Shown here one piece after another: positions 1,954-64,000 of a stretch of 64,000 nt of DNA (positions within the stretch are counted from its first letter, which is position 1; each line of letters starts with the position of its first letter). The notes beneath the pieces are model-generated. The model had not been told where the DNA came from, did no database searches, and saw nothing but the letters and a program-made list of their open reading frames with translations. The DNA lies in assembly GCA_963804645.1 (NCBI GenBank), contig CAWDRG010000009.1, positions 96,001-160,000 on the forward strand. The letters are read 5' to 3'. This DNA comes from an uncultured Bacillota bacterium (lineage in GTDB: Bacteria > Sysuimicrobiota > Sysuimicrobiia > Sysuimicrobiales > Segetimicrobiaceae). The position numbers were made by a program, and so were the translations under genes.

Positions 1954-2906
1954 GCGCGGCGGCGCAATCGCGGATTGAGTAAGATGACCGTAATGTCGGC
2001 GAAGAAGCTGGTCGCGACGATGACGATGGTCGTCAGCATCGCTAACGCTTCCACCGTCGGCAGGTCCCTTGTCTGGACCGCAGTAATCAACGTCAGCCCG
2101 ACACCGCGGTATTCGAACACTGACTCGACGATCACCACGCCCCCGAGCAGCCACGGCACGTTATACGCGAGCACCTGAATCGCCGGCGCCACGACGTTCG
2201 GCAGCGCGTGCCGCAGCACGAGCCGCCACGCCGCGATCCCGTTCAGCCGCGCGGCCTCGATATACGGTAAGTCGAGCACCTCGATCATGGTCGCCCGAAT
2301 CATCCGCACGCTCTGCGCCAGTGCGGCCGCCAAGAGGGTGACCACAGGCAGCACGAGGATCGACGGCCGTGCGAAGATTGGGCGCGACGGATCGATCAGC
2401 GAGACCGCCGGAAGCCACTTCAACCACACGGCGAACACCACGGCGAGGATGGCGCCGATGACAAATTGAGGGGTCGCGATCAACGACAGCGTGATCGCGG
2501 CCGTACTCTGATCGACGATCCCGTCCGGCCGGAGCGCGGAGACCGCTCCCAAAATCGTCGCGAGCGGGACAAGCAGGGCCATGGTGACCCCGGCCAGCAC
2601 GACCGTGTTCCACAGCTTATCGCCGATGACGTGAGCCACCGGCACGCCGGTCGGAAGGGAATGGCCCAAATCCCCCCGGACAAACCCGACCAGCCAGTTC
2701 CCGTACCGCTCCAAGACGGGCCGGTCAAGACCAAACTGCTTTCGAAGCCCCTCGACCAGTTGGGGCGTGGCATCTCGCCCAAGCGCCGCCGTCGCCGCGT
2801 CGCCCGGAAGGGCGCTGACGCCCAAGTAGATCAGCGCAGACGCCGCCAGCAGCGTGAGCAACCCCGCGCCGAGGCGAAATACGATCTCGCGCAGCAGAGG
2901 ATTCAC
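1950..2906 (-). CDS. Peptide ABC transporter permease, DppB/OppB type
   Basis: LPGDAA..GLDRP..GDLGHS, YIEAARLNG, RHALPN, IVESVF motifs. Confidence 0.9.
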   Translation of the reverse strand: MNPLLREIVFRLGAGLLTLLAASALIYLGVSALPGDAATAALGRDATPQLVEGLRKQFGLDRPVLERYGNWLVGFVRGDLGHSLPTGVPVAHVIGDKLWNTVVLAGVTMALLVPLATILGAVSALRPDGIVDQSTAAITLSLIATPQFVIGAILAVVFAVWLKWLPAVSLIDPSRPIFARPSILVLPVVTLLAAALAQSVRMIRATMIEVLDLPYIEAARLNGIAAWRLVLRHALPNVVAPAIQVLAYNVPWLLGGVVIVESVFEYRGVGLTLITAVQTRDLPTVEALAMLTTIVIVATSFFADITVILLNPRLRRRA

Positions 2907-2939
2907 ACGCGGCTCCGCACCACGAGCGCGGCCGCCCTG

Positions 2940-4520
2940 CTACGAGAGATACACGTCCGTAAAATTATACGCTCCGAGCCAACGCGACACGCTCGGCGTG
3001 AGGCCATGGACCTTTGCCGCGTATCCGTCGAGGTTGTCTTGGAACCCCCAAATGATGTAGCCGCCCTCGTTCCAGAGCAACGTCTGAGCCGCCACCCACA
3101 GTTCACGACGCTTCTTGGGATCGATCGTCTTCCGCGCTTGGTCCGTCAGTTTATCAAAGTCCGCGTTGTGGAAGTGCGTCTCGTTGTATGGAGCCGTAGA
3201 ATTCAGCACCTGAGCAAACTGCGTTGTGAGCGGCCGCGCAGACCATCCGCCCTGCCCGAGCGCCACCTTGAGGTATTGGGCCGTATAGTATTGGTCTCCC
3301 GGAACCTTATTCAGCGTTATCGTCACGCCCGCATTCTTCGCCTGTTCGGCCAGGATGGTGGCGGAGTCCAACATGCCGGGCCCGGCGTCACCGGTGTAGA
3401 TCGAGACGCTCAAATTCTCCTTCCCGGCGGCCCGGAGCAGCGACTTCGCCTGGTCGGGATCGTATGCGTGCTGCGGGAGCTGCGACGCGTAATCCGGATC
3501 CGTCGGCCAGAACAGATCGTTTCCCACCACCCCGAACTCTCCGAGTACGGTCTTGACCATTTGATCACGGTTGATCATCAACCGAAACGCACGCCGCACC
3601 CGATTGTCGGTAAACGGTGGAAGATCGACCGCCATGTACATCGTCTCCGTGAACGCGCGCGGCGCGCGCAACAGTCGTATCGGCCCGTTCGCCGTCAGCG
3701 TTTTGGCAAGCGGCAGCGGGTACTGCGACATTACGTCGGTTACGTTGGTCTGCAAGGCATTGAGACGCGCCGTCTCATCGCTGAAGGAAATAATTTCCAA
3801 TGCGTCCAGGTAGGGTCCGTTGTGGGTTCGATACGCGCTGTTGCGGACAAACACGCTCCGCTCGCCTGCAGTAAAACTCTGAAACTTGAACGGCCCCGTC
3901 CCGTTCGGTTGATCGAAGGTCTTCGTCCCGTCCTTTACCATCCAGATCGTCCGGGCAGCCAGCGACGTCGTGAGGAGCGCGTTGGGCTGGTCGAGGCGGA
4001 TCTCAACCGTCGAGGGATCCAGCGCTCGAATATTGCTCGGGTTGATGTATGCGATCTCGGTGTAGCCGTTCGCGTTATTGGCCTTCGTCGCGATGTACTG
4101 CAGGCTGTACACCACGTCGTTGGCCGTAAATGGCGACCCGTCGTGCCACACGACCCCCGGCAAGATCTTGATCCGCCATACAGTCGCGCTTGGGTTCGGC
4201 GACGCTTCTGCAGCCAACTGGGGCACGACCCCGCCGTTCGCGTCGTACGCATACAGCCGTTCATACAAGACGTGCGTGCGCATGATGTCGATTTCGTTGA
4301 CGTTGCGCATCGGGCTCAGCGTCTCTGACGCTCCGCCGCCGCGCTGACCTATCCGGAGCGTGCCGCCGCGTGTCGGAGCCGCCTGCGCGAATGCCGCCGA
4401 CGGAGCCCGGACAACCCCTCCAGTCCACACCGCTCCCGCGGCAGCAGCCACACCTAACCGTAGAAGATCGCGGCGCGAGAGCCCTCTGAGATCATCTCGG
4501 CGCTTCCGTTGCCCGGTCAT
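2940..4520 (-). CDS. ABC transporter substrate-binding protein, family 5, Tat signal peptide
   Basis: SRRDLLR twin-arginine signal; GVVWHDGSPFTANDV and NGTGPFK motifs; GGAGGAGG RBS before ATG 4520. Confidence 0.9.
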   Translation of the reverse strand: MTGQRKRRDDLRGLSRRDLLRLGVAAAAGAVWTGGVVRAPSAAFAQAAPTRGGTLRIGQRGGGASETLSPMRNVNEIDIMRTHVLYERLYAYDANGGVVPQLAAEASPNPSATVWRIKILPGVVWHDGSPFTANDVVYSLQYIATKANNANGYTEIAYINPSNIRALDPSTVEIRLDQPNALLTTSLAARTIWMVKDGTKTFDQPNGTGPFKFQSFTAGERSVFVRNSAYRTHNGPYLDALEIISFSDETARLNALQTNVTDVMSQYPLPLAKTLTANGPIRLLRAPRAFTETMYMAVDLPPFTDNRVRRAFRLMINRDQMVKTVLGEFGVVGNDLFWPTDPDYASQLPQHAYDPDQAKSLLRAAGKENLSVSIYTGDAGPGMLDSATILAEQAKNAGVTITLNKVPGDQYYTAQYLKVALGQGGWSARPLTTQFAQVLNSTAPYNETHFHNADFDKLTDQARKTIDPKKRRELWVAAQTLLWNEGGYIIWGFQDNLDGYAAKVHGLTPSVSRWLGAYNFTDVYLS

Positions 4521-4956
4521 CAGACCTCCTCCTTTCGAGCACATTCGTCTCTCCGCGTTCGACGCCCACGTCTGATACCGTCCATGGCCGCATGATTCGC
4601 CTTACCATCCTCAGTCAGTCCGCAAAACGCTGGGTCCTATGTTCATGGATGGCACCCGTATTCCTCTTCTAATTCGTTAAATCGTGACGCCGCCGCGCTC
4701 GGGCCACGCCACAGACAACCGCGCATCCGTCCCACTCCCCCGCGCCGCGCACACCCCCGCGTGATTGACCGCGCCGACGCCCCGCAACGCCGATCACCAG
4801 TCCGTCCCAGCTCCAGCGCCACGGTGCGCCGCGCGAACTCGTCGCGGCCGTGATCGGAAGGGGTCTGCATCGCGCCGTGCAACAATTAAGTGGCTGAGCG
4901 CTGATCGTGCGAGACCTGTCAGTGTCTGTCGGCCGCGTTCCAGCGGGGAGGCGCGT

Positions 4957-6201
4957 ATGACGTTTGACCTGGTGATCAAAAATGGGACGGTCGTCGACCC
5001 GGCGGTCGGCTTGCACGCTCCGGCGGACGTCGCCATCGTGAGAGGCCGCATTGCCGCGATCGACCAGTCCATCCCCGGCAGCAGCGCGGCTGAGGTGTAT
5101 GATGCCGCCGGCTGCTATGTGACGCCCGGACTCGTTGACCTGCATACTCATGTCTTCCGCAAGGTCACGTTCTGGGGAGTCAACGCTGACGTGGTGGCGG
5201 CGCGCACCGGCGTGACGACCTGGGTGGACGCCGGATCGGCAGGGGCCTTCACCGTCGACGGGTTTCGCGAGTTTATCGTCCGTCCGGCGGCAACCCGCAT
5301 CCTGGCGTTTCTGAATATCTCATGTATTGGGCTCGTCGCCCACGATTATGAGCTTACGAATTTGGCCTTCTGCAATCCAGACCTGTTTGAGTTGATGCTC
5401 AACGCGAATCGCGACTTGGTCGTGGGGGGCAAGGTCCGCTTGGGCGCGTCAACCGTCGGAAGCAACGGCTTTGAACCGTTGAAACTGGCGCGTGACGTCC
5501 TCGATCGATGCGAACTGCCCGTGATGCTGCACATCGCCGAGCGCCCGCCACATCCGGAGGAGTTCGTCGATCTCCTCCGCGAGGGGGACGTCCTAACCCA
5601 TTGCTTCACCGGCTGGGACATGCGGCTGGTCGACGAACACGGCAGGATACAACCGTTCGCGCGGCAGTGGATCGACCGGGGCGTCCTGCTGGACGTCGGC
5701 CATGGGACCGGCAGCCTCACGTTTGCGACGGCGGAAGCCATGCTGGCCGCAGGAATCAAACCGCACTTCATCTCCTCCGACATCCACCAGAACAGCATGC
5801 GTGGGCCGATGTATGATCTCCCTACATGTCTCACAAAGTTCTTGGCACTCGGGCTGAGCCTGGATGACGTGATCGCCTGCGCGACCTATGCTCCCGCCAA
5901 GTTTCTCCACCTCGAGCGCGAGATCGGAACGTTGCGACAGGGTGCGCATGCCGACGTGGCAGTGTTTGAGCTCGTTTCTCAACCGGTGGACCTCTACGAT
6001 TCCGATTGGGAGGTGAAGCGGAGCGAGCGGAGTCTCAGTTGCCGCGCGGCGTTCGTCGGCGGACGGCTCCTCCCCCGTGTCGAGGATGACCCCGCGCCTC
6101 GGTATCTCGAATGGAAGCGCGGCGGCCGTGACGACGTGCTCTACGCAAAGCAGGCGGAAGCCGCCGCAGCTGTGCGGAGCACGGCCCGGCGCATGCGCTG
6201 A
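4957..6201 (+). CDS. Amidohydrolase/deacetylase family metallohydrolase (dihydroorotase-like fold)
   Basis: PGLVDLHTH metal motif, GVTTWVDAGS, MLHI, THC, DVGHG, SSDIH; GGGGAGG RBS before MTFDLVIKNG. Confidence 0.85.
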   Translation: MTFDLVIKNGTVVDPAVGLHAPADVAIVRGRIAAIDQSIPGSSAAEVYDAAGCYVTPGLVDLHTHVFRKVTFWGVNADVVAARTGVTTWVDAGSAGAFTVDGFREFIVRPAATRILAFLNISCIGLVAHDYELTNLAFCNPDLFELMLNANRDLVVGGKVRLGASTVGSNGFEPLKLARDVLDRCELPVMLHIAERPPHPEEFVDLLREGDVLTHCFTGWDMRLVDEHGRIQPFARQWIDRGVLLDVGHGTGSLTFATAEAMLAAGIKPHFISSDIHQNSMRGPMYDLPTCLTKFLALGLSLDDVIACATYAPAKFLHLEREIGTLRQGAHADVAVFELVSQPVDLYDSDWEVKRSERSLSCRAAFVGGRLLPRVEDDPAPRYLEWKRGGRDDVLYAKQAEAAAAVRSTARRMR

Positions 6202-29881: not shown

Positions 29882-31924
29882 CTACGCCTGCGCCGCCACC
29901 GGCTGGGACGTCGGGCGGAACGCGTCGGTCAGACTGATCGACGCGATCTTTGTCCGGGCCTTCCCGAGCAGCGTGGCCGATGGGTAGACCATGAGCCCCG
30001 CGTCCAGGAACGTCAGCGCATCGTCGAGCCGCCGCAGCTTGAGCGCCACGGAGGCGGCCTCCAGATACACGCTCAACGCGCCGCGCGTGCGCGTGGCGAC
30101 GAACGCCTGGTAGAGCGTCAGCGCATCGTCGTAGTTCTGCGCCAGCCGATGCAGATCGGCGGCGATGGCGCACCCCTCCGCGTCGAGTCCTCGCAGCGCG
30201 AACGCCCGGCCGAGAAACTGCCCCGCCACCGTGTACTGCCGCTCCAGATACGCGAGCTTGCCCATGAGGCACAGCGCCTCGCCGTCCGTCAGGCCCGACA
30301 GCCGCAGCAGCAGCGACAGCGAGGAGGCCAGCGCGGTGGCGCCGCACGCGAGCGCCGACCGGATCACGTTGCGGATGATCGGAATCGCGATCGCCCGGTC
30401 CGTATCGGGGATCTCCACCAGCCGGGATGTCTCCTCACACACGGCGAGCATCGCGTCGAACGTGCGGAACACGGCTTCGAGTCCGTGCGGCTGGACCAAC
30501 TGCGCCTCGACGAGCATCGTCCGCGCGCGCGCGACGTCGCCCATGACCAGCGCCGTCTGAATCCGCCGGAGCAGGGCGGGCAGCAGCGCGGCGTTGTTGC
30601 GCGGCACCTCGCCCAGCACCCGGTACGCGTCCTCGAGCCGCCCGAGGCGGAAGAGGCACTCGCCGCGGAACAGCGTCACGAACCCGTCGTCAGTATCCTC
30701 GGGTGAGAGAACCTCGAGCGCCGCGTCGTACGCGCCGGCCTTCGCGAACGCACGCGCGACGCGGCGCGCCGCGACCCTCCCGGTGCGGGCGATCGGCCGG
30801 ACCCGTTCGAGGGCCTTGGCGGTGCCTTCCGACCTGCACGACCGGCGCACGAGGTGCTCAAGGACGTTCGGATCGTGCGGCACCGCGTCGGCCGCCGTCT
30901 GCAGGGCCAGCACGGCGTCCTCCCCGCGTTCCATCTTTGCGATCGCGATCCACACCAAGGGCAGCGTGCTGCCCGCGCCGCGCAGGACGAGATAGTTGTC
31001 GGACGGCGCGTCGCCGAGCGCGAGCGCGCGCCGCATCGCGGCTTCGACGCCGTCCCAATCGAACAAATCTGCGCACACGAGCCCCTCAAAGTAGTGGAGA
31101 TCGGTGTAATCGGGAAACTTCACCTGGTACTGGCGCAGCAGCTCCAGGGTCGCCTGATCCTTCCGCTGGTCGCGTAGCGCCAGCGTGAGGTTGCGGACGA
31201 TGACGGAGAGGTAGCGCGGCGCCTTCGCGCCGAGGAGCTTCAGCGACCTGCGAAACGCGCGCTCGGCCTCGACGGGGTGGCGGTCGCGCAGGTGTTCCGT
31301 ACCGAGGTTGAACCAGTGGTACGGATCGTTGGGATGTTTCTTGAGCGCCCCTTCGAGCATCGTGATGTTGCGCGCGATCTTGCCCCGCCGGGCGACCACG
31401 GGCACGAGATAGCCGTAGTGCAGGAGGGTGATCGAGCTGGTGCGCACCTCAGCGCCGGCGCTGGTGAGCGCCGGCAGGATCTGTTCGTGGATGTCGCCGG
31501 CGAAGCGATACGCGGGCCGGCGCCGAAACAGCCGCGGGTACAGGTTCTCGACGCTCAGCTGCTCATCCGGCGAGTCGCCCAGATAGCTGACGATGCGCAC
31601 CCAGTACGCCTCCGCCAAAGGGTCCGCGACCGCCGCGCGCACCGCGGTCGCGGACGTATCGTCGAGTTCCTCATCGGCGTCGAGCACGAAGATCCAGTCG
31701 CCCGTCGCCTGGTCGAGCGCGGCGTTGCGCGCGGCGGCGAAATCCCCGCGCCACGTGATGCGGGTGACCCGGGCGCCCTCGGCGCGCGCGATCTCGACGG
31801 TCTCATCCGTGCTGCCGGTGTCCACGACGACGATCTCGTCGACCACCCCGCGGACGCTGCGAAGGCAGCCGGCCAGGCTGGCCGCCTCGTTCTTGACGAT
31901 CATGCAGACGGAGAGCTTAGGCAT
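29882..31924 (-). CDS. GT2 glycosyltransferase with TPR repeats (probable flagellin glycosyltransferase)
   Basis: LSVCMIVKNE, VDTGSTD, DFAAARN, LDADE, IHEQ, HYGY, followed by TPR-like helices; ATG 31924 overlaps the fliS end. Confidence 0.88.
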   Translation of the reverse strand: MPKLSVCMIVKNEAASLAGCLRSVRGVVDEIVVVDTGSTDETVEIARAEGARVTRITWRGDFAAARNAALDQATGDWIFVLDADEELDDTSATAVRAAVADPLAEAYWVRIVSYLGDSPDEQLSVENLYPRLFRRRPAYRFAGDIHEQILPALTSAGAEVRTSSITLLHYGYLVPVVARRGKIARNITMLEGALKKHPNDPYHWFNLGTEHLRDRHPVEAERAFRRSLKLLGAKAPRYLSVIVRNLTLALRDQRKDQATLELLRQYQVKFPDYTDLHYFEGLVCADLFDWDGVEAAMRRALALGDAPSDNYLVLRGAGSTLPLVWIAIAKMERGEDAVLALQTAADAVPHDPNVLEHLVRRSCRSEGTAKALERVRPIARTGRVAARRVARAFAKAGAYDAALEVLSPEDTDDGFVTLFRGECLFRLGRLEDAYRVLGEVPRNNAALLPALLRRIQTALVMGDVARARTMLVEAQLVQPHGLEAVFRTFDAMLAVCEETSRLVEIPDTDRAIAIPIIRNVIRSALACGATALASSLSLLLRLSGLTDGEALCLMGKLAYLERQYTVAGQFLGRAFALRGLDAEGCAIAADLHRLAQNYDDALTLYQAFVATRTRGALSVYLEAASVALKLRRLDDALTFLDAGLMVYPSATLLGKARTKIASISLTDAFRPTSQPVAAQA

Positions 31925-32318
31925 TGGAGGACTCCCGCGCGGCCTCGGCCGCGTGTGCAAATGCGCTGCGAAGGTTGGCGAGCACCGTCCGGACCTTCGC
32001 GTAGGTCGCGCTATCCGACTGATGCCCCTCCGCCAGCCGGGCGAGACACCACTGATAGAGCGTGAGCAGACGCCCCGCGAGCACGGGGTCCGGGCCGGGA
32101 TCGATCGCGCTGATCAACAAGAGCAGCACCTGCGTGACCCTCCGCTCCGCTTTGCGCACGGTGTCGAGATCGGCGGCCGCCACGGCGGCGGCCGCCCGGT
32201 CGCACTCGTGCAGCGCGGTATCGTAGGCCAGCAAGAGCACGTCCGTGTTCGACGCGGTGAGAACGTTCGCGGCCTGGTATGCGCGAGCCGCTTCGACCCG
32301 GCTGTCAACTGTCGCCAT
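31917..32318 (-). CDS. fliS: Flagellin export chaperone FliS
   Basis: AYQ..VLTAS..LLLAYD...L.TLYQW..L; located after fliD. Confidence 0.8.
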   Translation of the reverse strand: MATVDSRVEAARAYQAANVLTASNTDVLLLAYDTALHECDRAAAAVAAADLDTVRKAERRVTQVLLLLISAIDPGPDPVLAGRLLTLYQWCLARLAEGHQSDSATYAKVRTVLANLRSAFAHAAEAARESSNA

Positions 32319-38836: not shown

Positions 38837-39163
38837 TTATGGGGTGTGTGGACCCGAAAGTTTGTTCGGGTTCGAGCCCTGCCCGTGATGCGTGAGCGAG
38901 TCCAGCACCATCTTGGCGAGACCGTTGTCCCCCCGCGATACCGCGTCCGCGAACCCCTGCTCCACGAGCCCTCCATAAATGTCCGCGCCGCCGGACGAGT
39001 CTCCCATCAGCGTGTCCGTCGGAAGGGCGGTATGGAGCACTTCCTGCCACAGCATGGAGGCAAAGTCCTCACTCGCCTTCACGAGCTTCGCGTCCGGTGC
39101 TGCGGGGGCCGAGGCCGCTGCGGGGACGGCGGGCCCCAAGCCGGCCGGCTCGACGGCGGCCAT
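38837..39163 (-). CDS. flgJ: FlgJ rod-capping protein (rod-binding domain only)
   Basis: KLVKASEDFASML...ADIYGGLVEQGFA...GLAKMVLDSL; follows flgI; no muramidase domain. Confidence 0.78.
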   Translation of the reverse strand: MAAVEPAGLGPAVPAAASAPAAPDAKLVKASEDFASMLWQEVLHTALPTDTLMGDSSGGADIYGGLVEQGFADAVSRGDNGLAKMVLDSLTHHGQGSNPNKLSGPHTP

Positions 39164-40287
39164 CAGATCACCTCCACGTCGGCCTGCAGGGCGCCGGCCC
39201 GCTGCAGCGACTCGATGATCGTGATGAGGTCGCGAGGCGGCACCCCCAGCGAGTTGAGCGCGGCGACAAGGTCGCTCAGCGTCGCCGCCCCGCCCACCAG
39301 CAGCATGGGTTTATTGCCCTGCTGCACCGAGATCTGCGCGTTCGGCACCGTCTGGGTCGTCCCGTTGCTGAAGGGCCCGGGCTGGCTGACCTGCGTCGTG
39401 TTCGTAATGATGACCTTGATCGAGCCGTTGGCGATCGCCGCGGGCATGAGATGGACGTCCCCCCCGGCCACGATCGTGCCGGTGCGCTCGTTGATGACGA
39501 CCTTGGCCGACACGTGCGGGGCGACGCGCAGTCCCAGCACCTGGCCGATCCACGCGTCGGGGGCCTCGGCCTGTGCCATCGGGGGCGTCACGATGATCGT
39601 CGTCGCGTCCTGGGCGACGGCCTGGCCGAGCCCCATTTGATTGATCGTCTGGGCGATGACGGCCGCGGTCTGGTAATCCGGGTTTCTCAGCGCGAACCGG
39701 ACGTCGCCGTGCTCGTCAACCGCGAGCGCGTCGTCAATCGGCGCGACCACGAGCCCGCCGGACGGCATCATGCCCACGGTCGGATGGTTGACCTGCACGC
39801 TCGACCCGGACTGCTGCGCGTTGAAGCCGCCGATGCTGAGCGCCCCCTGCGCCATCGCGTGCACCTGCCCGTCGAGACCCTGCAGCGGCGTTTGGAGCAG
39901 CACCCCGCCCTGCAGCGACGTGGCGTTGCCCATCGAGCTCACGGTCACCGCGAACCGCTGGCCGTCGGGCGCGAATGCCGGCAGCGACGACGTCACGACG
40001 ACCGCCGCCACGTTGCCGATGTTCATCTGTGACCCGCCCGGCACGTGGATGCCGAACCGCGCGAGCATGTTGGTCACCGTCTGCACGGTGTACGTTGCCT
40101 GGCTGCTGTCGCCCGTCCCGGCCAGACCGACCACGAGCCCGTAGCCCGCCAGGGGATGATCGTGCACGCCCGAGACCGTCGCCAGGCTGCCGACCTCCAC
40201 CCCGCTCTGGACCTGCGCCCATCCCGCGCCGGCGCCGAGCACCGCGACGAGCAGTCCCACTGCGCACCCTACCAGATGACGCCGCAT
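39163..40287 (-). CDS. flgI: Flagellar P-ring protein FlgI
   Basis: GYGLVVGLAGTGD, NVAAVVVT, SLQGGVLLQTPL, AKVVINERTGTIV, AGALQA; Sec signal. Confidence 0.93.
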   Translation of the reverse strand: MRRHLVGCAVGLLVAVLGAGAGWAQVQSGVEVGSLATVSGVHDHPLAGYGLVVGLAGTGDSSQATYTVQTVTNMLARFGIHVPGGSQMNIGNVAAVVVTSSLPAFAPDGQRFAVTVSSMGNATSLQGGVLLQTPLQGLDGQVHAMAQGALSIGGFNAQQSGSSVQVNHPTVGMMPSGGLVVAPIDDALAVDEHGDVRFALRNPDYQTAAVIAQTINQMGLGQAVAQDATTIIVTPPMAQAEAPDAWIGQVLGLRVAPHVSAKVVINERTGTIVAGGDVHLMPAAIANGSIKVIITNTTQVSQPGPFSNGTTQTVPNAQISVQQGNKPMLLVGGAATLSDLVAALNSLGVPPRDLITIIESLQRAGALQADVEVI

Positions 40288-40363
40288 GATCGATCCTCCT
40301 CGTCCCATTTCACGTGCTCCGCCCGAGCGCGCCGCGGCCTGCGCCGAAGCGCGGCGGGATCGC

Positions 40364-40942
40364 TCACAGCGCCGGGATCAGCTTCAAGATGATGCCGACG
40401 CCGAACGCGATCGCCAGCGCATCCCAGATGGTGAATCGCTGGACGGTCGTGAGGTGGCCGGTCATCGTCGCCACCACGTCCGCCAGCCGCGAGCCCTGGA
40501 CCGAATCGTCGGACCCGAGGTCCTGCGCGCGCAGCACCCCGGTAATCGTGATCGTCTGCAGGTTCCCGTCGAGCCTGAACTGGCGCGAGCCCTGCACCGT
40601 CATCAGTCCGCCGGGCGCGATGCCCGTGACGCGCATCGCGAAGTCGCCCGTCAGGGCGTTCTGCCAGGTCGTCGCCGAGCCCTGAGTGGTCTGCAGCCCC
40701 TGCGACACAAAGATGCTGACCAACGGCGAGTTCGTCGTCGTGGTCGACGTCCCGTTCACCGTCGCCTGAACCGACGACGAGGTCAGGTGCACCAGCACGA
40801 TGTCGCCGACCGCGCTGGCGATGGGGTCGACAAACAAACTCCCCGCCGGCGGCGCGTCGGGATTCGCGCCCCAGGCGGGCGCCCCGCCGAGCAGCACGCA
40901 CAGCACGAGTGCGATCCACCCATATCCCCGCAACATCCTCAT
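40364..40942 (-). CDS. flgH: Flagellar L-ring protein FlgH (atypical)
   Basis: SLFVD...VGDIVLV and RVTGIAPGGLMTVQGSRQFRLDG...ITGVLRAQD..SRLAD; lies between flgA and flgI. Confidence 0.78.
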   Translation of the reverse strand: MRMLRGYGWIALVLCVLLGGAPAWGANPDAPPAGSLFVDPIASAVGDIVLVHLTSSSVQATVNGTSTTTTNSPLVSIFVSQGLQTTQGSATTWQNALTGDFAMRVTGIAPGGLMTVQGSRQFRLDGNLQTITITGVLRAQDLGSDDSVQGSRLADVVATMTGHLTTVQRFTIWDALAIAFGVGIILKLIPAL

Positions 40943-44179: not shown

Positions 44180-46332
44180 CAGGGCACCGAGATCATCCCG
44201 AAGGAATTGAGCGCGACGTCCGCCGCGAGCTCCTCGTACGCCATGATCGGCAGCCCGGGCACCCGCGCGGACACCAGCTTCCGCAGCGTGCTGCGGATCG
44301 ACCCCGGCACCAGGAGCACCGGGGAGACGCCCTTCGCCGCCGCGCTCGCGCGCGCGGCGACCAGCTGATCGCTCAGCACCGTGACCTCCTTCAGCCCGAG
44401 CCCCAGCAGCGGCTTGTGCTGGTCCTGCGCCTGCCGGAACCGGTCCTGCACCGCCGGGTCGAGCATCAGCACCGGCAGCTTCCGGTCCGCGCCCAGGTAC
44501 GACTGCCACAGCGCCGGCCCAAGCTGGCGCCGAGCCATCTCGACGAGATCGGCCGGGTCCTTCTGGTTGGCGTTGACCCCATCGGCCACCGCCTCGATGA
44601 TGCGGACGAGCGACCGCACCGGGATCTGCTCGGCCAGCAGGCCCTGGAGCACGCGCTGAAGCGTGCCGAGCGACACGATCTTCGGCACGACCTCGTCGAG
44701 CAGCACGGCGTGCTGACCGCGGAGCCGCTCCACCATGTCGCGGGTCGTCTGGCGCGTCATCAGATCCGGGGCGTGCCGGCGCAGCAGCTCGACCATGTGG
44801 GTGGCGATGACCACCGTCGGGGGCACCAGCAGGTACCCCGCCCGCTCGACGTCGTCCTTGATCGCCTGATCGACCCACACCGCGGGCCCGCCGAACGTGG
44901 GATCCTTCGCCTGCAGGCCCTCGATGGCCGGCGGGTTGGGGACCGTCGGAATGGCCATGATCCGGTTGGGGTAGACCTCGCCCCGGCCGACCTCGGCCCC
45001 CCACAGCGTCACCGCGTAGGTGCGCGCGCCGAGCGTCGCGACGTCCCGGATCCTGATCGTCGGGACCAGCACGGCGAGCTGCTGCGTCACCTGACGGCGC
45101 GCCAGCACCATGCGGTCCGCCAGGTCCCCCTGCGTCACGAGCGTCGCCAGCGACGGCGCCAGCAGCAGTTCGATCGGCTCGACCACGAGCAGCGATTCCA
45201 TCGCCTGCGGCGATCCGAGGTCCGCGGGCGCGGGGGCCGCGGCCGGCGCGGCTTTCGGCTGACGCCGCCGCGCGTTGCCCGCCACGATCAGCCCGACGGC
45301 GAACAGGAGAAAGACCACCTTCGGCATGCCCGGGATGAGGGCGATCACGCCGACCATGGCCCCGGCGAGCGATAGCGCCTGCGGCCGCGCGGTGATCTGC
45401 GCCACCGCCTCGGCGCCCAGCTCCTCGCGGGACGCCGCGCGCGTCACCAACAGTCCGCTCGCCATGCCCATCAGCAGCGCGGGGACCTGGACCGCGAGCC
45501 CGGCGCCCACCGTGAGCACCGTGAGGGCCTGCGCCGCGTCCTGAATCGGCTGGCCGCGCATGAACGCCGCGATCGCGATGCCGCCGACGAGATCGATCAG
45601 CACGATCACCGCGCTCGCGACCGCGTCGCCGCGCACGAACTTCCCCGCGCCGTCCATCGCGCCGTAGAAGTCCGCCTGCTGCTCGATCGCGCGGCGGCGG
45701 GTGCGCGCGACGTCCTCCGTGATCACCCCGGCGTTGAGATCGGCGTCGATCGCCATCTGCTTGCCGGGCATCGCGTCGAGCGTGAACCGGGCCGCGACCT
45801 CGGCGATCCGGCTCGCGCCGCTGCTGATCACGACGAACTGGACGATCATCACGATCAGGAACAGCACGAACCCGACGATGGCGTTGCCGCCCATCACGAC
45901 GTTCCCGAACGCGGCGATGAGGCTGCCGGCGCTGCCCTGGAGCAGGATGAGCCGCGTCAGCCCGATGTTGACGGCGAGGCGGAACACCGAGCTCATGAGC
46001 AGGACGGACGGGAACACCGAGAACTGCAGCGGGTCCGTCGTGTACGCGGCCACGAACATCACGAGCACCGACACCGCGATGTTCGCCGCCACCAGCAGGT
46101 CGATGATCCACGGGGCCAGCGGCGCCAGGATCAGCAGCGTGACCAGCAGGGCCGCGCCGCCGACGAGGACGTCGCCGAGCCGGCGCCCCGCCGTCTTGGC
46201 CGGAGTGGCGCCCGGCGCGGCGGCCGGACGCGCGGTACGGGCGGGGCGCACCTCTCGCGTCCGCGGCGCCTGCCGTCCCGGCGATCCGCCCACGCCGCTC
46301 ACGCCGGCCGACTCCGGCACGACGCTAGCCAC
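44179..46332 (-). CDS. flhA: Flagellar export gate protein FlhA
   Basis: RIAEVAARFTLDAMPGKQMAIDADL, FYGAMDGAGKFVRGD; start approximate. Confidence 0.95.
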   Translation of the reverse strand: MASVVPESAGVSGVGGSPGRQAPRTREVRPARTARPAAAPGATPAKTAGRRLGDVLVGGAALLVTLLILAPLAPWIIDLLVAANIAVSVLVMFVAAYTTDPLQFSVFPSVLLMSSVFRLAVNIGLTRLILLQGSAGSLIAAFGNVVMGGNAIVGFVLFLIVMIVQFVVISSGASRIAEVAARFTLDAMPGKQMAIDADLNAGVITEDVARTRRRAIEQQADFYGAMDGAGKFVRGDAVASAVIVLIDLVGGIAIAAFMRGQPIQDAAQALTVLTVGAGLAVQVPALLMGMASGLLVTRAASREELGAEAVAQITARPQALSLAGAMVGVIALIPGMPKVVFLLFAVGLIVAGNARRRQPKAAPAAAPAPADLGSPQAMESLLVVEPIELLLAPSLATLVTQGDLADRMVLARRQVTQQLAVLVPTIRIRDVATLGARTYAVTLWGAEVGRGEVYPNRIMAIPTVPNPPAIEGLQAKDPTFGGPAVWVDQAIKDDVERAGYLLVPPTVVIATHMVELLRRHAPDLMTRQTTRDMVERLRGQHAVLLDEVVPKIVSLGTLQRVLQGLLAEQIPVRSLVRIIEAVADGVNANQKDPADLVEMARRQLGPALWQSYLGADRKLPVLMLDPAVQDRFRQAQDQHKPLLGLGLKEVTVLSDQLVAARASAAAKGVSPVLLVPGSIRSTLRKLVSARVPGLPIMAYEELAADVALNSFGMISVP

Positions 46333-47386
46333 GGGCCGCCTCCGCCCGCGCCGTGCGATAGATCCAGCCCAGGACCTCGGCGACGGCGCGGTACAGCCGC
46401 GGCGGGATGAACTGTCCGACCTCGACGCTGGCATACAGCGCCCGGGCGAGCGGGGGTTCGGGGTGGATCGGCACGCCGGCGCGCCACGCCACCGCGCGGA
46501 TGCGCGCGGCGACGTGCCCCTGGCCCTTCGCGACGACCTGCGGCGCGGCGAGGCCCGCCTCGTAGCGCAGGGCGACCGCCACTTCGGTCGGGTTGGTGAT
46601 CACGACGGCCGCCGTCGGCACCGCGTGCATCATGCGCGCACGCGCGATCGCGCGCGCCCGGGCGCGGCGCCGGGACTTCCAGTACGGGTCGCCTTCGGTC
46701 TCTTTGAGATCCTCGCGGACCTCCTGGCGCGTCATCCGCAGCTCACGCTCGACCCGGAACCGCTGCCACGCGTAGTCCGCCGCCATGATGATCGCGCCGA
46801 CGGCGAACAGCCGCGCGAGGAGCGGCCCCGCGACCGCGCGCAGCACCTGCCAGACGCCGTCCGGCGACGCCAGCTCGCCGGCCGTGGCCCGGTTGAGGAT
46901 GTCCCGCAGGCCGGCCTTCAGCAGCAGCCCGACGACCACGCTGATCGCGGCCATCCGCAGCACCTCGACCGCGATCCGCGCGGACACGAGGCGCTTGAAC
47001 CCCGCGAGCGGATTCATCCGCGAGAGCTGCGGCTGCAGGACCGCGGGGGCGGCGCGCCCGCCGGTCTGAGCCAACCCCAGCGCGAGCGCCCCGGCGCACG
47101 CGCCGGCCGTCACCACGGCCACCGGGATCGCCGCGGTCCACAACGCGGTCCGCACCCACCCCATCGCCCACGGGATGCCGGGATCCGCGGGCACCGGAAG
47201 AGACGGCTGCGTGATCGCCCGCTCGAGCCAGCCCCATACCCAGCCACCTCCGAGCGCGAGCATGCCGAGCGCCCCGCCGACGGCTCCCACGGCCGTGGCC
47301 ATCCCGGTCCGTGCGATCTTGCCCTCCGTCTGCGCGCGCTGCCGCCGCCGCGGGGTGGGGGCCTCGGTGCGATCGCCGAGCGACAT
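46325..47386 (-). CDS. flhB: Flagellar export switch protein FlhB
   Basis: RTEAPTPRR, RMNPLAG, MTRQEVRED.KETEGDP, ITNPTE, PPLARALY. Confidence 0.93.
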   Translation of the reverse strand: MSLGDRTEAPTPRRRQRAQTEGKIARTGMATAVGAVGGALGMLALGGGWVWGWLERAITQPSLPVPADPGIPWAMGWVRTALWTAAIPVAVVTAGACAGALALGLAQTGGRAAPAVLQPQLSRMNPLAGFKRLVSARIAVEVLRMAAISVVVGLLLKAGLRDILNRATAGELASPDGVWQVLRAVAGPLLARLFAVGAIIMAADYAWQRFRVERELRMTRQEVREDLKETEGDPYWKSRRRARARAIARARMMHAVPTAAVVITNPTEVAVALRYEAGLAAPQVVAKGQGHVAARIRAVAWRAGVPIHPEPPLARALYASVEVGQFIPPRLYRAVAEVLGWIYRTARAEAARG

Positions 47387-47456
47387 CAGCGGCTCACCGC
47401 CGCCGAGGATCCCGCCTCGCCGCGCCGAGCGGTGCCGGCCGCACGCCGCACGCGCG

Positions 47457-48224
47457 TCACGGGACCACCAGCTGCCGGGCGGACCCGATGATCTCACCCA
47501 GGCCGCCGAGCAGCCGGCCTTCGAGCGCGAGGGTCACGGCCACGGTGATCGTGACCGCGATCAGCGCGGTGCCGAGCTCCGCGGGCAGCGCCGCCATGTA
47601 CAGCGCGTTCTGCGCGGTCAGCCGGCCCGCCACGGCCAGGGTCAGGTTGACGACGAAGAGGGAGAGCAGCACGGGGGCCGCGAGCGTGAGGGCCACCCCG
47701 ACCAGCCGACCCACCATCGCCACCACGGCGAGGCCGGGCCGGGCCGGCAGGCTGCCCGTCAGCGGGATCGTGGCAAAGCTGTCGCCGAGGGCGTGGATCC
47801 ACTGTTCCAGCCCGCCGCCGCCGAAGAACAGGAGCGCCAACATTAAAGGATAGATCTGCCCGAGGCTCGTCGCGGACGGCCCGCCGCCGGCTCCTAGAAT
47901 GCCCGCGGGGTTCAGGCCCACGGCGAGTTCAGCGATCGACCCGGCCATCTCGGCCGCGCTCCACAGCAGGCTGATCGCGAATCCGAACACGAGCCCGAGC
48001 GCGAGGTTCCACGCGATCCCGCCGACCAACCCGCCGGTCGTGGTCGGCACCGCGAGCCCCCGATGCAGCAGGTCCGGCGTCAGCGCGAATCCGATCGCGG
48101 CGGCCAGGGCGGCGCGAAACTGGATCGGCAGCACCTCGGCGCCGATCCACCCCGGCGCCGCGAAGATCCCCATCGCGCGGGATGCGGCCAGGACGAACAT
48201 CGTCAGTTCGGTCATCGGGGCCAT
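47457..48224 (-). CDS. fliR: FliR
   Basis: Hydrophobic 255 aa between fliQ and flhB; AEMAG, LAAP..LF. Confidence 0.85.
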   Translation of the reverse strand: MAPMTELTMFVLAASRAMGIFAAPGWIGAEVLPIQFRAALAAAIGFALTPDLLHRGLAVPTTTGGLVGGIAWNLALGLVFGFAISLLWSAAEMAGSIAELAVGLNPAGILGAGGGPSATSLGQIYPLMLALLFFGGGGLEQWIHALGDSFATIPLTGSLPARPGLAVVAMVGRLVGVALTLAAPVLLSLFVVNLTLAVAGRLTAQNALYMAALPAELGTALIAVTITVAVTLALEGRLLGGLGEIIGSARQLVVP

Positions 48225-54580: not shown

Positions 54581-55006
54581 CTACGGCACGCTGACGAGAT
54601 TCCCGAACGGGATTTTCTCGTTGTTGATCGTGAGCATCGGGCCGCTCGTGCCGACCGCCGCGCCCGTGACGCTGCCCTGCACGGTGTCGCCGCTCGTGGG
54701 ATCCTGATACGTCACCGACTGCCCCACCAGCTGGAGCGCGGTCTGGAACTGCGTCGTCTGGCTCGCCTGCGCGGTCTCCTCGACGTCGGTCATCTGGGCG
54801 AGCTGCGTGACCATCGTCGTCGGATCGGTGGCGTTCGTCGGATCCTGGTGGCTGAGCTCCTCCAACAGCACCTGCAGAAACATCTGGCTGACCGGCGTGG
54901 TCGCGCCGCTGCCGTTGAGGCTCGCGGCGCCGCTCGGGCCGCTGGTCGATCCGGCCGCCGGCGTCGTCGCGGGCGTGGTGACTTGGTTAAGCACCGGACT
55001 GCTCAT
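54581..55006 (-). CDS. flgD: Hook capping protein FlgD
   Basis: FLQVLLEELSHQDPTN..D...QLAQ...LVGQSV. Confidence 0.88.
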   Translation of the reverse strand: MSSPVLNQVTTPATTPAAGSTSGPSGAASLNGSGATTPVSQMFLQVLLEELSHQDPTNATDPTTMVTQLAQMTDVEETAQASQTTQFQTALQLVGQSVTYQDPTSGDTVQGSVTGAAVGTSGPMLTINNEKIPFGNLVSVP

Positions 55007-56567
55007 GTGTGTCCTCCTCTGAGTCTGGCATCGTCGTGTGGAAGCTCTGGGCCGATCGCGGAGGCCGGTGCGACCCGCCCTGCGGGTGCCCGTTTGACGA
55101 ACGGTCGGACGACGCGGGCCGCACGGCGAGATCCGACAACTGCACCTCGTGCGACGCGAGGGCGGAGCGCAGGGCCCCGGCATGGTCCCGAAGCGTCTGC
55201 GCCATCCCCGGCGTCTGCGTCACGACGCGCGCCGACACCGCGTCCGCCCGGTCGGTGAGGGTGACCGTGACCGGTTGGTCACCGCCGGACCGAATCGTCA
55301 CGTGGGAGACCGAGCCGCCGGTCGGTGCGCCGGCGGCCGGTCCATCCGTCACGCGCCCCTGCGCCCCGGCACCTGCGGCCGACGCGGCGCTCCCGGACGA
55401 TGCGGGCCCGGACGCCGCACCGCCCTGCGGGGCCTGGTTCATGCCCTGCCCGATCCCCTGATACCCGCCGCCGCCGGCCTGCGCCTGTCCGCCGTTCCCG
55501 GCGGTCACGCCGCCGAGATCCACCGCCAGCGCCGCATCGGCACCCCGCCGGCCCCCGTCCCGTCCAGAGCCCGCGGAGCCGGCGGCGCTGTCGATCCTCG
55601 CCTGCACCACCGCCGCCACCCCGTCGGCGTTGATCCCGTTCGACCCCGCGGCCTGACCGGCGACCGGCTTGACGGCCTGCCCGCCGCGGACGAATGCGCC
55701 ATCGGGATCCCCGCCGCGACCGGGGGCTATCCCGCGGGGCGGCGACACGTCGACGCGGTCAGATGCGGGCGCGCCGGCCTTCGCCCCGCCCGTGGAGGCG
55801 GGCGCAGCGGAACTGGCCCCGCTCGGTGCGGCGGGCGCCGGGGCCTTGGCCCCGCCCGTGGAGACGGGCGACGATCCCTGGCCCGCGCGGGTCCCGGCGC
55901 TCCCTCCCGTTCCCGAGGCGGCGCTGCCCGCGGCGCCGGCAGCGCCGCGGTGCGTCGGGTCGGTTCCGGTCGACCCGCCGGCCGTGCCGCTCGCAAGCTG
56001 GCGGGCAATGTCGTCACGCGCGCGCATGATGTTCGAGACGTACGATTGGGTCTCGGGATAGGGAGGCACGCCGCCCCACGACGAGACGGCGCCGCTGCCG
56101 GCGTTGTAGGCCGCGAGCCCGAGCGGGACGGAGCCGAACTCGGTGAGCTTCTGCCGCAGGTAGTCCAACCCGCCGGCGAGGTTCTGCGTAGGATCGAGCG
56201 GCTTTGAGACGCCGAGCTCTTGGACCGTACCCGGCATCAACTGCATCAGCCCCAGCGCCCCGGACGGCGACACGGCGCTGGGATTTCCGCCGGATTCCTG
56301 CAGGACGACCGCGAGCGCGAGCGCCGGGTCGACGCCCTCGCGGCGCGCCTGGCTGATGATCAGCTCGCGCTCGCTCTGCGGCAGCTTGCTGAGCTCGGCC
56401 GCGGCGCTCGACCCCGTGCCGCTGGCGCCTCCCGAGACCTGGTTCAGGACGCTCGCGAACGTGGACGTGCCCCCGCCCGAGTCCCCCGAGGCGTCCCCGG
56501 AGATCCCGAAGCGGGATTGGATCGTGCCGATGCGCGCGAGCACGGCGCTGAGGCTGGCCGGCATCAC
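54987..56567 (-). CDS. Lytic transglycosylase (SLT) fused to FliK-like hook-length control domain
   Basis: N-terminal SLT motifs QESGGNP.AVS..GALGLMQLMP, AAYNAG, PPYPETQSYV; long G/A/S/P linker; C-terminal VTVTL....VSARV......LRDHAGALRSALASHEVQL resembling the FliK T3S4 domain; occupies the fliK position between fliJ and flgD. Confidence 0.8.
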   Translation of the reverse strand: MMPASLSAVLARIGTIQSRFGISGDASGDSGGGTSTFASVLNQVSGGASGTGSSAAAELSKLPQSERELIISQARREGVDPALALAVVLQESGGNPSAVSPSGALGLMQLMPGTVQELGVSKPLDPTQNLAGGLDYLRQKLTEFGSVPLGLAAYNAGSGAVSSWGGVPPYPETQSYVSNIMRARDDIARQLASGTAGGSTGTDPTHRGAAGAAGSAASGTGGSAGTRAGQGSSPVSTGGAKAPAPAAPSGASSAAPASTGGAKAGAPASDRVDVSPPRGIAPGRGGDPDGAFVRGGQAVKPVAGQAAGSNGINADGVAAVVQARIDSAAGSAGSGRDGGRRGADAALAVDLGGVTAGNGGQAQAGGGGYQGIGQGMNQAPQGGAASGPASSGSAASAAGAGAQGRVTDGPAAGAPTGGSVSHVTIRSGGDQPVTVTLTDRADAVSARVVTQTPGMAQTLRDHAGALRSALASHEVQLSDLAVRPASSDRSSNGHPQGGSHRPPRSAQSFHTTMPDSEEDTHEQSGA

Positions 56568-57010
56568 GCGATGGTCCTCCGCGCGCGCTCCGCCACCATC
56601 TCGTCCGTGGCCCGCTCCTGCTCCCGCGCGGCCTCGAGGCGGTGGGTGGCGAGCGCGCGGTCCTTGAGGCGCTCGACGATCTCCGTCTCCTGGCGGCGCG
56701 CCTCGACGACTCCCCGCGCCTCGGCGACGGTCGCCGCGGCCTGGGCCAGCAGGGTGGACTCGCTCTCCAGCGCCGCGTGCATGCCGCGCAGGATGGTGTC
56801 CGCGGTCAGCACCTCGGTCGCCGTCGGACTCTCGAGCAGGCGGTCGCGGACGTCGTCCACCGCGTCCTGGATCTCCGACTCGACCGCCGCCACCCGTTCC
56901 TCGGCCTCGCGCTGCCGCACGACCGACGCGTGCAGCTCGGCCTGGGCCGCGAGCATGCGATGGTGGCGCACTTCGAGCAACCGCTCCAGAGGAAACCGAA
57001 ACTTCTTCAT
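56564..57010 (-). CDS. fliJ: Flagellar export protein FliJ
   Basis: MKKFRFPLERLLEVR...ERLK...EQERATDE. Confidence 0.85.
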   Translation of the reverse strand: MKKFRFPLERLLEVRHHRMLAAQAELHASVVRQREAEERVAAVESEIQDAVDDVRDRLLESPTATEVLTADTILRGMHAALESESTLLAQAAATVAEARGVVEARRQETEIVERLKDRALATHRLEAAREQERATDEMVAERARRTIA

Positions 57011-62813: not shown

Positions 62814-64000
62814 TTAGTCCGCGGCGGGACCCTCGACGCGTGCGGTGCGCTGCGCGGACGCCAGTGCCGGCGCGCTTCCAATGTGCTGCACGTCCGGGAC
62901 GTCCGGCACAGCCTGCAGCGGGGCCGCGGGTGCGGTGCCGTTGCGGGTGGGCGGGGTGGAACCGGGCAGCATCGCGACGAGCGCGAACACCGCGCGCGCC
63001 TGCTCGAGGACGCTGCTGGCGTCGGTGATTTGTCCGGAGGACGTGTGCAGGTCCGCGAGGACCACGAGGCTCTGGGCCTCGGTCAGCGCGTCGCCGGCCT
63101 CGTGCGCCACCGCGCGGGCGTATCCGATCTGGGCGAACGCTTCGTCGATCCGCCCCTGCCGGCGCGCCGCCTGCCCCAGGTGCAGGCGCGTGACCGCCTC
63201 CTGCCGCTTGGTCGCCAAGGCCTCGCGCAGCATCAGCGCGTGCTGATTGGCATTGACCGCGCCTGCCAGGTTCCCGTGGCTCTCGGCGGTGATCGCCTGC
63301 GCTTCCCACAGTTCCGCCGCCTGCTGGGGCGCGAGCGAGGCCATCGCCTCCTCGAGCTGCGCCTCGAGGCCGTCGCTGCCGTCGCCCTGCGCCAGCGCGA
63401 CGCAGATCAGCTCGGCCACGCAGCGCGCGCGCAGGCCCGGCCAGGAGTCACCCATGCTGGCCAGCGTCGTGATCAGCGTCTGCTGGGCCCGGGGATGATC
63501 GCCCTTCGCGTGCAGCGCCACGGCCAGCGCGTAGCGACTCTGGGCCACCGCCTGCGCGTGCCCGAACCGCGCCGCCTCCGTCTGCGCCGCGGTCAGCTCG
63601 GTCTCATACTGCGGGGTCCACCGGCGCTGCACGCGCGCCGACGCGAACTCAAGACGGGCGAGCGCGGTGCGGGACGCATCCGAGGCGGTCACCGCGAGGG
63701 CCTCGGCGGTCTCAAACAGGCGCTGCGCGGTCTCCAGGTCGCCCGCGGCGCGCCGGATCCTCGCGCGCAGCAGCACGCAGTCGATCTCGGCCTCGTCCGG
63801 GCCGCCCTGCTCCAGGAAAAATCGGATGGGCTTCCCGACGCGGCGCGCGATGTGCGACAGCACCCGACGGGTGGGGTTCACGCGGCCGGACTCGATCCGG
63901 TGGATGGTGACCGGATCGACCTCGCCGCCCGCGAGCTGTGCTTGCGTCAGCCCAGCCTCCAAACGCGACTGTCGAACCTTGTCCGCGAGCGAGGCTGTTG
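62814..64000 (-). CDS. XRE-family HTH regulator with TPR repeats (RRNPP-like architecture), start lies beyond the window
   Basis: Frame stays open to the window end (SLADKVRQSRLEAGLTQAQLAG..IHRIESGRVNP..L.HIA), followed by TPR-like helices. Confidence 0.8.
   Translation of the reverse strand, partial: TASLADKVRQSRLEAGLTQAQLAGGEVDPVTIHRIESGRVNPTRRVLSHIARRVGKPIRFFLEQGGPDEAEIDCVLLRARIRRAAGDLETAQRLFETAEALAVTASDASRTALARLEFASARVQRRWTPQYETELTAAQTEAARFGHAQAVAQSRYALAVALHAKGDHPRAQQTLITTLASMGDSWPGLRARCVAELICVALAQGDGSDGLEAQLEEAMASLAPQQAAELWEAQAITAESHGNLAGAVNANQHALMLREALATKRQEAVTRLHLGQAARRQGRIDEAFAQIGYARAVAHEAGDALTEAQSLVVLADLHTSSGQITDASSVLEQARAVFALVAMLPGSTPPTRNGTAPAAPLQAVPDVPDVQHIGSAPALASAQRTARVEGPAAD

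Follow-up and report, generated by a model that had tools for sequence, protein, structure and literature searches.

A recurrent fusion of a lytic transglycosylase domain to the flagellar ruler protein FliK

How a flagellar rod passes through peptidoglycan is unsettled wherever the rod protein FlgJ has no hydrolase domain. The consulted excerpt of a study of Bacillus subtilis CwlQ describes wall penetration by the rod as unknown for any Gram-positive bacterium (bioRxiv 10.1101/2021.01.13.426625), and the consulted part of a 2026 report states that the hydrolase activity of Salmonella FlgJ helps but is not required (PMC13584718). A flagellar locus of an uncultured Bacillota bacterium from peat (Sysuimicrobiota in GTDB; GenBank assembly GCA_963804645.1) raises the question of whether the ruler protein FliK may carry such an enzyme itself. 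We analysed 64,000 nucleotides of this genome (contig CAWDRG010000009.1, positions 96,001 to 160,000; hereafter the window), in which an earlier note, made from the sequence alone, had read one gene as a lytic transglycosylase (SLT) joined to FliK. We found that this gene, slt-fliK, is one real gene and a recurrent fusion of known flagellar parts. Both parts, and the flagellar secretion of a CwlQ-type enzyme, were already known; what is new is their recurrent fusion. This fusion is apparently undescribed: as the earlier note had supposed, we found no description of it in the literature reached by our search (titles and the starts of abstracts, with subscription journals and supplements outside its reach). 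In the consulted part of a survey of actinobacterial flagella, CwlQ and FliK are used as separate queries and the words 'fusion' and 'transglycosylase' are absent (PMC10746217).

The gene lies at 54987-56567 of the window on the minus strand and forms one open reading frame (ORF) of 526 amino acids. The coordinates and the uninterrupted frame given in the earlier note are exact; the strand, which it had left unstated, is added here. Translation from a GTG at 56567 gives 526 amino acids and translation from the ATG at codon 2 (56564) gives 525, the form called by the gene caller (P0002), and the stop is a TAA at 54989-54987. The gene and its parts are as follows.

54987..56567, minus strand: whole slt-fliK gene (ORF and translation, two Pfam domains)
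56511..56558, minus strand: N-terminal amphipathic helix, residues 4-19, SLSAVLARIGTIQSRF (AlphaFold2 (AF2) model)
56430..56459, minus strand: second short helix, residues 37-46, with an F-x-x-V-L motif (FASVLNQV) (AF2 model)
55989..56387, minus strand: SLT (GH23-type) lytic transglycosylase domain, residues 61-193 (Pfam, AF2, Foldseek)
55323..55988, minus strand: disordered linker rich in Gly, Ala, Ser and Pro, residues 194-415 (predicted local distance difference test (pLDDT) below 50, composition)
55095..55322, minus strand: FliK C-terminal type III secretion substrate specificity switch (T3S4) domain, residues 416-491 (Pfam, AF2, fold searches)
54990..55094, minus strand: disordered C-terminal tail, residues 492-526 (pLDDT about 42-51)

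Pfam recognised both domains in the same chain, SLT (PF01464) at residues 69-166 with 93.4 bits and Flg_hook (PF02120) at residues 432-488 with 30.8 bits, the latter against a cut-off of 29.8 bits; the last 137 residues alone scored 33.6 bits on Flg_hook. The motifs E91-S92, G106-L-M-Q109 and A153-Y-N-A-G157, from which the SLT domain had been called intact-looking in the earlier note, are all present and are invariant in 12 fused sequences (the codon of the catalytic Glu91 is 56295-56297, minus strand). E91, S92, G106, Q109, Y154, N155, A156 and G157 are invariant in all 40 fused sequences of a larger set. We therefore describe the SLT half as a predicted lytic transglycosylase with intact catalytic motifs. 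NCBIfam gave domain-level SLT matches only, the best being to a Borrelia BB0259-type flagellar transglycosylase (55.5 bits against a cut-off of 234).

An AF2 model built on 40 fused sequences consists of two confident domains joined by a disordered linker. The SLT domain (about residues 55-195) has a pLDDT of 94-98, residues 199-414 are disordered with a pLDDT below 50, and residues 419-488 form three strands, two helices and one strand with a pLDDT of 85-90. The low-complexity stretch of more than 200 residues that the earlier note had pointed out thus corresponds to a modelled disordered linker of about 220 residues (72% Gly, Ala, Ser, Pro or Thr over residues 196-415), which we presume to be the tape of the ruler. 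Foldseek matched the SLT part best to Slt70 (1qte, E 2.5e-7), followed by MltD, Slt, MltF and MltE. For a model of the last 140 residues, PscP (5cuk) and the C-terminal domain of FliK (2rrl) ranked first and second in Foldseek (E 0.045 and 0.054), and a VIA-align search of 48,161 chains gave 5cuk a Z of 6.8 (69 residues, 3.5 Å) and 2rrl a Z of 6.7 (73 residues, 3.8 Å), with the next chain at 5.2. The absolute scores are modest; it is the ranking that counts, and it agrees with Pfam. Together, the Flg_hook score above the cut-off and the fold matches to PscP and FliK bear out the FliK-like C-terminal domain proposed in the earlier note.

The two N-terminal helices, at residues 4-19 and 37-46, are modelled with a pLDDT of about 36-61 (means of 10-residue blocks). 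Residues 4-19 are presumed to be an export-signal region, with a motif conserved in signal-less SLTs of flagellar loci: R12 occurs in every one of the 12 fused sequences and in at least 90% of the 40, and N-termini of this kind occur in separate SLTs of relatives and of other phyla. F37, in the second helix, is likewise invariant in the 12. No Sec signal or membrane-type hydrophobic stretch was found in the fused protein, where the highest 19-residue Kyte-Doolittle mean is 0.9, as the earlier note had judged by eye. Residues 1-70 gave no Pfam match even at E<=10, and the whole protein contains no Rod-binding domain (PF10135).

The same architecture recurs elsewhere. Among 120 proteins listed by a first search, 12 others have both domains, with 26-87% identity to the window protein. 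A wider search covered 1.84 billion proteins; from its best 150 cluster representatives we scanned 48 that were long and not yet known, and 27 of these had SLT together with Flg_hook at E<=0.01, 17 of the 27 above the Pfam cut-off. With our own profile of the FliK C-terminal domain, built from the alignment, 42 distinct fused proteins in several separate SLT lineages were recognised among 270 collected sequences, and one more was seen beyond the 42. Flg_hook scores in the more distant fused proteins reach 58.9 bits. The current NCBI name of such proteins is only 'transglycosylase SLT domain-containing protein'. Lengths across the 42 were as follows.

Total length: median 542 amino acids, range 484-807
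Linker length: median 222 amino acids, range 142-467
Tail length: median 35 amino acids, range 13-83

Comparison with single relatives revealed where the sequence is held constant. The window protein is 90% identical to P0006 in the SLT domain, 90% in the C-terminal domain and 58% in the linker; for P0011 the values are 73%, 67% and 25%. The linker diverges fast with its length kept, whereas both folded domains are conserved, which reflects selection on both parts.

The frame holds in other data as well. Two studies of peat metagenomes supplied assembled contigs that tile the ORF or cover part of it, with some linker bins left uncovered in one run (X3). No indel is listed inside the fused ORF; the only ones listed in this comparison fall within fliJ. 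Two peat metatranscriptome libraries gave contigs identical to parts of the linker and of the SLT region (X8 at 55592-55767 and 56010-56143, X9 at 56054-56325). This is at most a hint of expression in situ, as carry-over of DNA is possible.

slt-fliK occupies the place at which fliK is expected, between fliJ and flgD, as the earlier note had placed it.

56564..57010, minus strand: fliJ, 148 amino acids (Pfam FliJ, 29.4 bits)
54581..55006, minus strand: flgD, 141 amino acids (Pfam FlgD, 44.9 bits)

The gene is tightly packed within its operon. Its ATG overlaps the TGA stop of fliJ, behind a GGAGGA site, the ATG of fliJ in turn overlaps the stop of fliI, and the ATG of flgD lies inside the final 20 bases of the fused gene, after a GAGGAGGA ribosome-binding site. 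On the same strand, fliE, fliF, fliG, fliH, fliI and fliJ lie upstream; flgD, flgE, flbD, motA, motB, fliL, fliM, an ORF of the fliN/fliO region, fliP, fliQ and fliR lie downstream; and flhB, flhA, flgF, flgG, flgA, flgH, flgI, flgK, flgL, a flagellin gene and fliD follow farther downstream. The nearest named relatives of FliI are from bacterium HR32 (63% identity), then Brevibacillus, Selenomonadaceae and 'Firmicutes bacterium'. Across the whole genome (96.8% complete, in 22 contigs), five PF02120 matches were obtained at E<=1, of which only the fused gene is above the cut-off; no second fliK was found among them, the next-best match scoring 15.4 bits, so the view of the earlier note that no separate fliK accompanies the fusion extends from the cluster to the genome.

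Two further genes flank this cluster. A 692-residue GT2 glycosyltransferase with TPR repeats (window 29882-31960, minus strand) adjoins fliD and the flagellin gene and may act in flagellin glycosylation. At the other end of the cluster, just upstream of fliE, an HTH_3-TPR protein (window 62814-63962, minus strand) may be a regulator.

A small SLT match elsewhere in the genome, on contig C5, was considered as a second flagellar enzyme. It is the end of an Slt70-like gene (L110, G000:C5:294500-299500, about 2321-4977, minus strand) and was rejected as a housekeeping transglycosylase with a signal peptide. This gene appears split between two frames, the longer ORF having an Arg-rich tail, and the split is probably an assembly frameshift error or a pseudogene.

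The interpretation in the earlier note stands as to the true in-frame fusion, its position, the missing Sec signal and the sole fliK. It is amended in that the fusion recurs, the enzyme half is CwlQ-like, and a short FlgJ-like ORF without a hydrolase domain follows flgI. The genes that bear on this amendment are listed here together with the partner expected for the T3S4 domain.

38837..39163, minus strand: 108-residue FlgJ-like ORF, directly after flgI (weak Pfam Rod-binding)
39163-40308, minus strand: flgI, P-ring (378.6 bits)
40364-40942, minus strand: flgH, L-ring (73.4 bits)
46325..47497, minus strand: flhB, export-gate component, start codon uncertain (Pfam Bac_export_2, 308 bits)

The presence of FlgH and FlgI indicates a diderm cell. 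A whole-genome search gave no Rod-binding (FlgJ) match at E<=1, and NCBIfam gave nothing for the 108-residue ORF. The ORF and its orthologues in G004 (88% identity) and G006 (56-57%) nevertheless all show weak Rod-binding similarity (three of three; the best E, 0.0027, does not reach the cut-off). The ORF probably encodes a single-domain FlgJ made up solely of the rod-binding part, without a hydrolase, and a rod-cap scaffold is thus probably still present. Natural fusions of Rod-binding (the N-terminal part of FlgJ) with SLT exist in other proteins (P0020, P0120, P0387 and P0389; 276-327 amino acids), some relatives of which carry the precomputed Pfam family PF27553. The T3S4 domain acts on the FlhB export gate. 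The usual autocleavage motif of FlhB is NPTH; here the site reads NPTE, with the Asn-Pro kept.

Related genomes show where the fusion came from. The FliK part of the query matched only G000, G004 and G006, all of the same genus, among 41 related genomes (G034 enters only the tallies of the searches for the fused gene and the FlgJ-like ORF). In G028, G030, G033 and G036, which belong to the same order and to other families, the order is fliI-fliJ-slt-fliK-flgD-flgE, with slt (163-188 amino acids) and fliK (504-642 amino acids, counted from the first start codon) as separate genes. Pfam recognised the FliK domain in two of these four separate FliKs (54.6 and 20.7 bits), whereas our own profile recognised all four (E 1e-13 to 1e-17). 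The separate SLTs open with the same kind of helix, MSPNLLLVLSRVRAIERW and MIPGMLTTLARIRWIEAQL compared with MPASLSAVLARIGTIQSRF in the fused protein. Because slt and fliK are separate and adjacent in these order-level relatives, the gene arose, on comparative sequence evidence, by in-frame fusion of neighbouring slt and fliK genes. In three of the four, moreover, slt ends and fliK begins within a shared GTGA, so that a single small indel could fuse the two. Insertion of an SLT domain into FliK, which would have left the F-x-x-V-L motif ahead of the SLT, was rejected, as the separate SLTs of relatives carry a similar motif.

The T3S4 domain begins at residue 416 in the window protein; in the four separate FliKs, whose start codons are inferred, it begins at residues 396, 400, 453 and 528. 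This similarity suggests that the SLT head took the place of a comparably long N-terminal stretch of FliK.

Adjacency of slt and fliK extends beyond this order. A generic SLT similarity search gave 80 named loci, kept from at least 600 matching stretches and all of them similar in the SLT part only. None of these 80 has a fused slt-fliK, and in 10 of them a separate fliK lies directly downstream of slt (one in Armatimonadia, five in Actinomycetota, three in Anaerolineae and one in Synergistaceae). Signal-less SLTs with a similar N-terminal helix also occur beside rod genes in Gastranaerophilales, and in Leptospira. Four such loci (L027, L035, L039 and L101; Gastranaerophilales and related metagenome-assembled genomes) have a signal-less SLT of about 183-201 amino acids directly upstream of flgF/flgG-type rod genes, the usual neighbourhood of FlgJ.

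Three of the seven genomes of the genus gave matches to the fused gene and the FlgJ-like ORF (G000, G004 and G006; not G001, G002, G003 or G005), and few genomes of the family showed either with these queries. This patchy distribution suggests loss or transfer of the whole flagellar region.

On this evidence we propose, with a probability of roughly 0.6, that slt-fliK encodes a CwlQ-like, signal-less lytic transglycosylase joined to the FliK ruler and exported as a flagellar type III substrate of the rod/hook class. The protein would enter the export channel N-terminus first, guided by its conserved N-terminal helices. Its SLT head would emerge in the periplasm at the tip of the growing rod, refold there and cut glycan strands locally, supplying the hydrolase activity that is missing from the short FlgJ-like protein. 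The disordered linker of about 220 residues, probably together with the unfolded head, would serve as the measuring tape, and the C-terminal T3S4 domain would flip FlhB to late substrates. We infer the export route, the enzyme activity, the rod-stage timing and the ruler function alike from sequence. The architecture suggests that the enzyme, riding at the front of the ruler, exits through the flagellar export channel. Natural, repeated fusion and a conserved slt-fliK pair further make a 'Rosetta stone' argument, which suggests that enzymes of the CwlQ type are exported with rod/hook substrates and act when and where FliK does.

Several points weigh against this proposal. Export, catalysis and length control are proposed from architecture, conservation and context, and the source organism is uncultured. 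The Flg_hook score of the whole protein is barely above the cut-off (30.8 versus 29.8 bits), and the fold similarity to T3S4 domains is modest (Foldseek E 0.045-0.054; Z below 8). When a sequence profile of the C-terminal domain was run against Protein Data Bank chains, it recovered no FliK, its only match being an unrelated response regulator (E 0.15), and it took fold searches to bring out the T3S4 match. Two close relatives, P0007 and P0010 (the G004 copy), are frameshifted in the linker, and the assembly seems to hold frame errors elsewhere, as in the split Slt70-like gene. A profile alignment (hhalign) of the N-terminal region with the N-termini of CwlQ-like proteins of Bacillaceae covered no more than 16 columns around F-x-x-L-L, at the second helix of the fused protein, and only weakly (E 0.061, probability 0.9%), which does not demonstrate homology of the two regions. 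In B. subtilis, according to the consulted excerpt, CwlQ is required for swarming and not for flagellar assembly (bioRxiv 10.1101/2021.01.13.426625), which leaves even the closest enzyme studied so far without an established part in rod penetration. Lastly, fused and separate forms are interleaved on the tree of the SLT domain, which fits a near-neutral fusion as well as an adaptive one.

That tree (FastTree, 266 rows; P0002 and G006 left out as duplicates, P0007 and P0010 as frameshifted) requires 15 changes of the fused state for 42 fused rows, compared with a mean of 39.7 after shuffling, and at least five of the changes are forced by well-supported branches. Fifteen is an upper-end figure, as there are few columns for many rows and some short rows may be fragments. 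More than one fusion or fission event is still likely on this tree. Such turnover, with short separate forms inside fused clades, is what one would expect if the fusion were real and functionally neutral, that is, if two proteins that are expressed together and belong to one class of export substrates had been joined by loss of the slt stop and each half worked as it does when separate, with no coupling of wall cutting to length control. The GTGA overlap in three relatives would make such joining easy, and relatives manage with separate slt and fliK genes. Nonetheless, the window protein belongs to a clade (support 94) whose 16 rows are all fused, with no separate form among them, and which spans a wide divergence (its most distant aligned members, such as P0016, are 34-36% identical to the window protein overall). 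Some of the short 'separate' rows may represent fragments at contig ends or frameshifted calls and so inflate the change count. In addition, the N-terminal region of the separate FliKs has been lost while the distance from the N-terminus to T3S4 has been kept, which looks like integration rather than simple joining. We consider a neutral fusion unlikely, on balance. Should it be neutral, it would still be useful for annotation, since the SLT-only naming at NCBI makes such genomes look as if they lacked fliK.

Integration could also go further than we propose. The enzyme head might be integral to the measuring device, refolding outside the channel and holding the peptidoglycan or having to cut it first, so that the N-terminus of the tape would be anchored in the wall and not at the hook cap, and the switch would fire only after the wall is breached. 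On this reading, the 416-residue distance from the N-terminus to T3S4 would match the 396-528 residues of separate FliKs because the unfolded head counts as tape. If it were true, CwlQ-type enzymes in general would stand out as partners of FliK at the rod/hook stage, marked by their recurring fusion and by the adjacency of slt and fliK in different phyla. We regard this extended version as quite doubtful.

The frameshifted relatives bear on whether one gene might yield two proteins, with internal initiation or proteolysis of the linker freeing an SLT enzyme and a shorter FliK. P0007 and P0010 look like 'SLT only' proteins and turn to Arg-rich, wrong-frame text within the linker. Compared with the window, the G004 DNA has one deletion of 1 nucleotide near codon 256, which splits the gene into a 383-residue SLT ORF and a possible 248-residue FliK ORF with no further decay, an observation in favour of two products; the linker, long and disordered in the model, would also be accessible to proteases. 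The other seven indels in G004 are all multiples of three, however, which indicates selection on a single reading frame. No internal Met is conserved in the aligned close relatives, M183 being replaced by Leu in several (P0004, P0005 and P0006), and a FliK made from the linker onward would be without the conserved N-terminal export region. Production of two proteins from slt-fliK is thus improbable, and the reading of a single exported enzyme-ruler chain is preferred.

It is more improbable still that the C-terminal domain has ceased to work as a ruler or switch, leaving a secreted transglycosylase with a degenerate remnant of FliK, and that hook length is set in some other way. The borderline Flg_hook score and the NPTE motif of FlhB, in place of the usual form, would agree with such decay. 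The C-terminal domain is nevertheless as conserved as the SLT domain (90% to P0006, 67% to P0011), its T3S4 topology is modelled confidently, Flg_hook scores rise to 58.9 bits in more distant fused proteins, and the fused gene is the sole fliK of the genome. Finally, despite apparent frame errors elsewhere in the assembly and the two relatives split in the linker, we can hardly credit an artefact of assembly or gene calling in which a frameshift or stop separating two genes was lost, because proteins from many independent assemblies, at 26-87% identity, share the uninterrupted frame, contigs from two studies cover the ORF with no indel listed inside, and the text of the split relatives after the shift is Arg-rich wrong-frame sequence.

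The fusion implies that a type III ruler can tolerate a folded enzyme of about 130 residues at its leading end, which matters for understanding how rulers are anchored and drawn through the channel. Compared with known rulers, the protein resembles FliK in its place in the operon (fliJ-x-flgD-flgE), in being the sole copy in the genome, in a T3S4 domain recognised by Pfam and by fold, and in the long disordered region before that domain and the disordered tail after it. Salmonella FliK, according to the consulted part of one study, consists of an N-terminal domain (residues 1-207), a flexible linker and a C-terminal T3S4 domain (PMC6972891). The fused protein lacks this usual N-terminal domain, as it lacks the N-terminal region of its relatives' separate FliKs, and has instead a folded SLT with intact catalytic motifs and conserved N-terminal helices of its own.

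The enzyme half most resembles CwlQ. In the consulted excerpt, B. subtilis CwlQ is a protein of 244 amino acids that lacks Sec and Tat signals and has an SLT domain behind an N-terminal region of unknown function; residues 2-35 are required for its secretion, which is FliF-dependent (bioRxiv 10.1101/2021.01.13.426625). The fused protein shares with it the order of an N-terminal region followed by an SLT with a catalytic Glu, the lack of a Sec or Tat signal and a flagellar gene set, and CwlQ-like proteins of Bacillaceae have F-x-x-L-L at about the same distance from the N-terminus. Unlike the fused protein, CwlQ stands alone, is encoded away from fliK under a SigD promoter and has no flagellar fusion partner. 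A Nocardioides locus (L030) has a 326-residue ORF with a similar N-terminal helix motif and SLT directly upstream of a separate fliK.

The closest parallels in logic are FlgJ and SltF. Salmonella FlgJ is a rod cap fused to a glucosaminidase, and in Rhodobacter sphaeroides a single-domain FlgJ works with a Sec-exported SltF. In these systems, as proposed for slt-fliK, the wall is opened at the growing rod by a peptidoglycan hydrolase that a flagellar type III substrate either carries or recruits, and, as in R. sphaeroides, the genome has a short FlgJ-like ORF with no hydrolase domain. The fused protein differs from SltF in having neither a Sec signal nor an N-terminal hydrophobic segment. It differs from Salmonella FlgJ in its enzyme, which is a GH23 SLT and not a GH73 glucosaminidase, and in its carrier, which has no Rod-binding domain and is the ruler rather than the rod cap.

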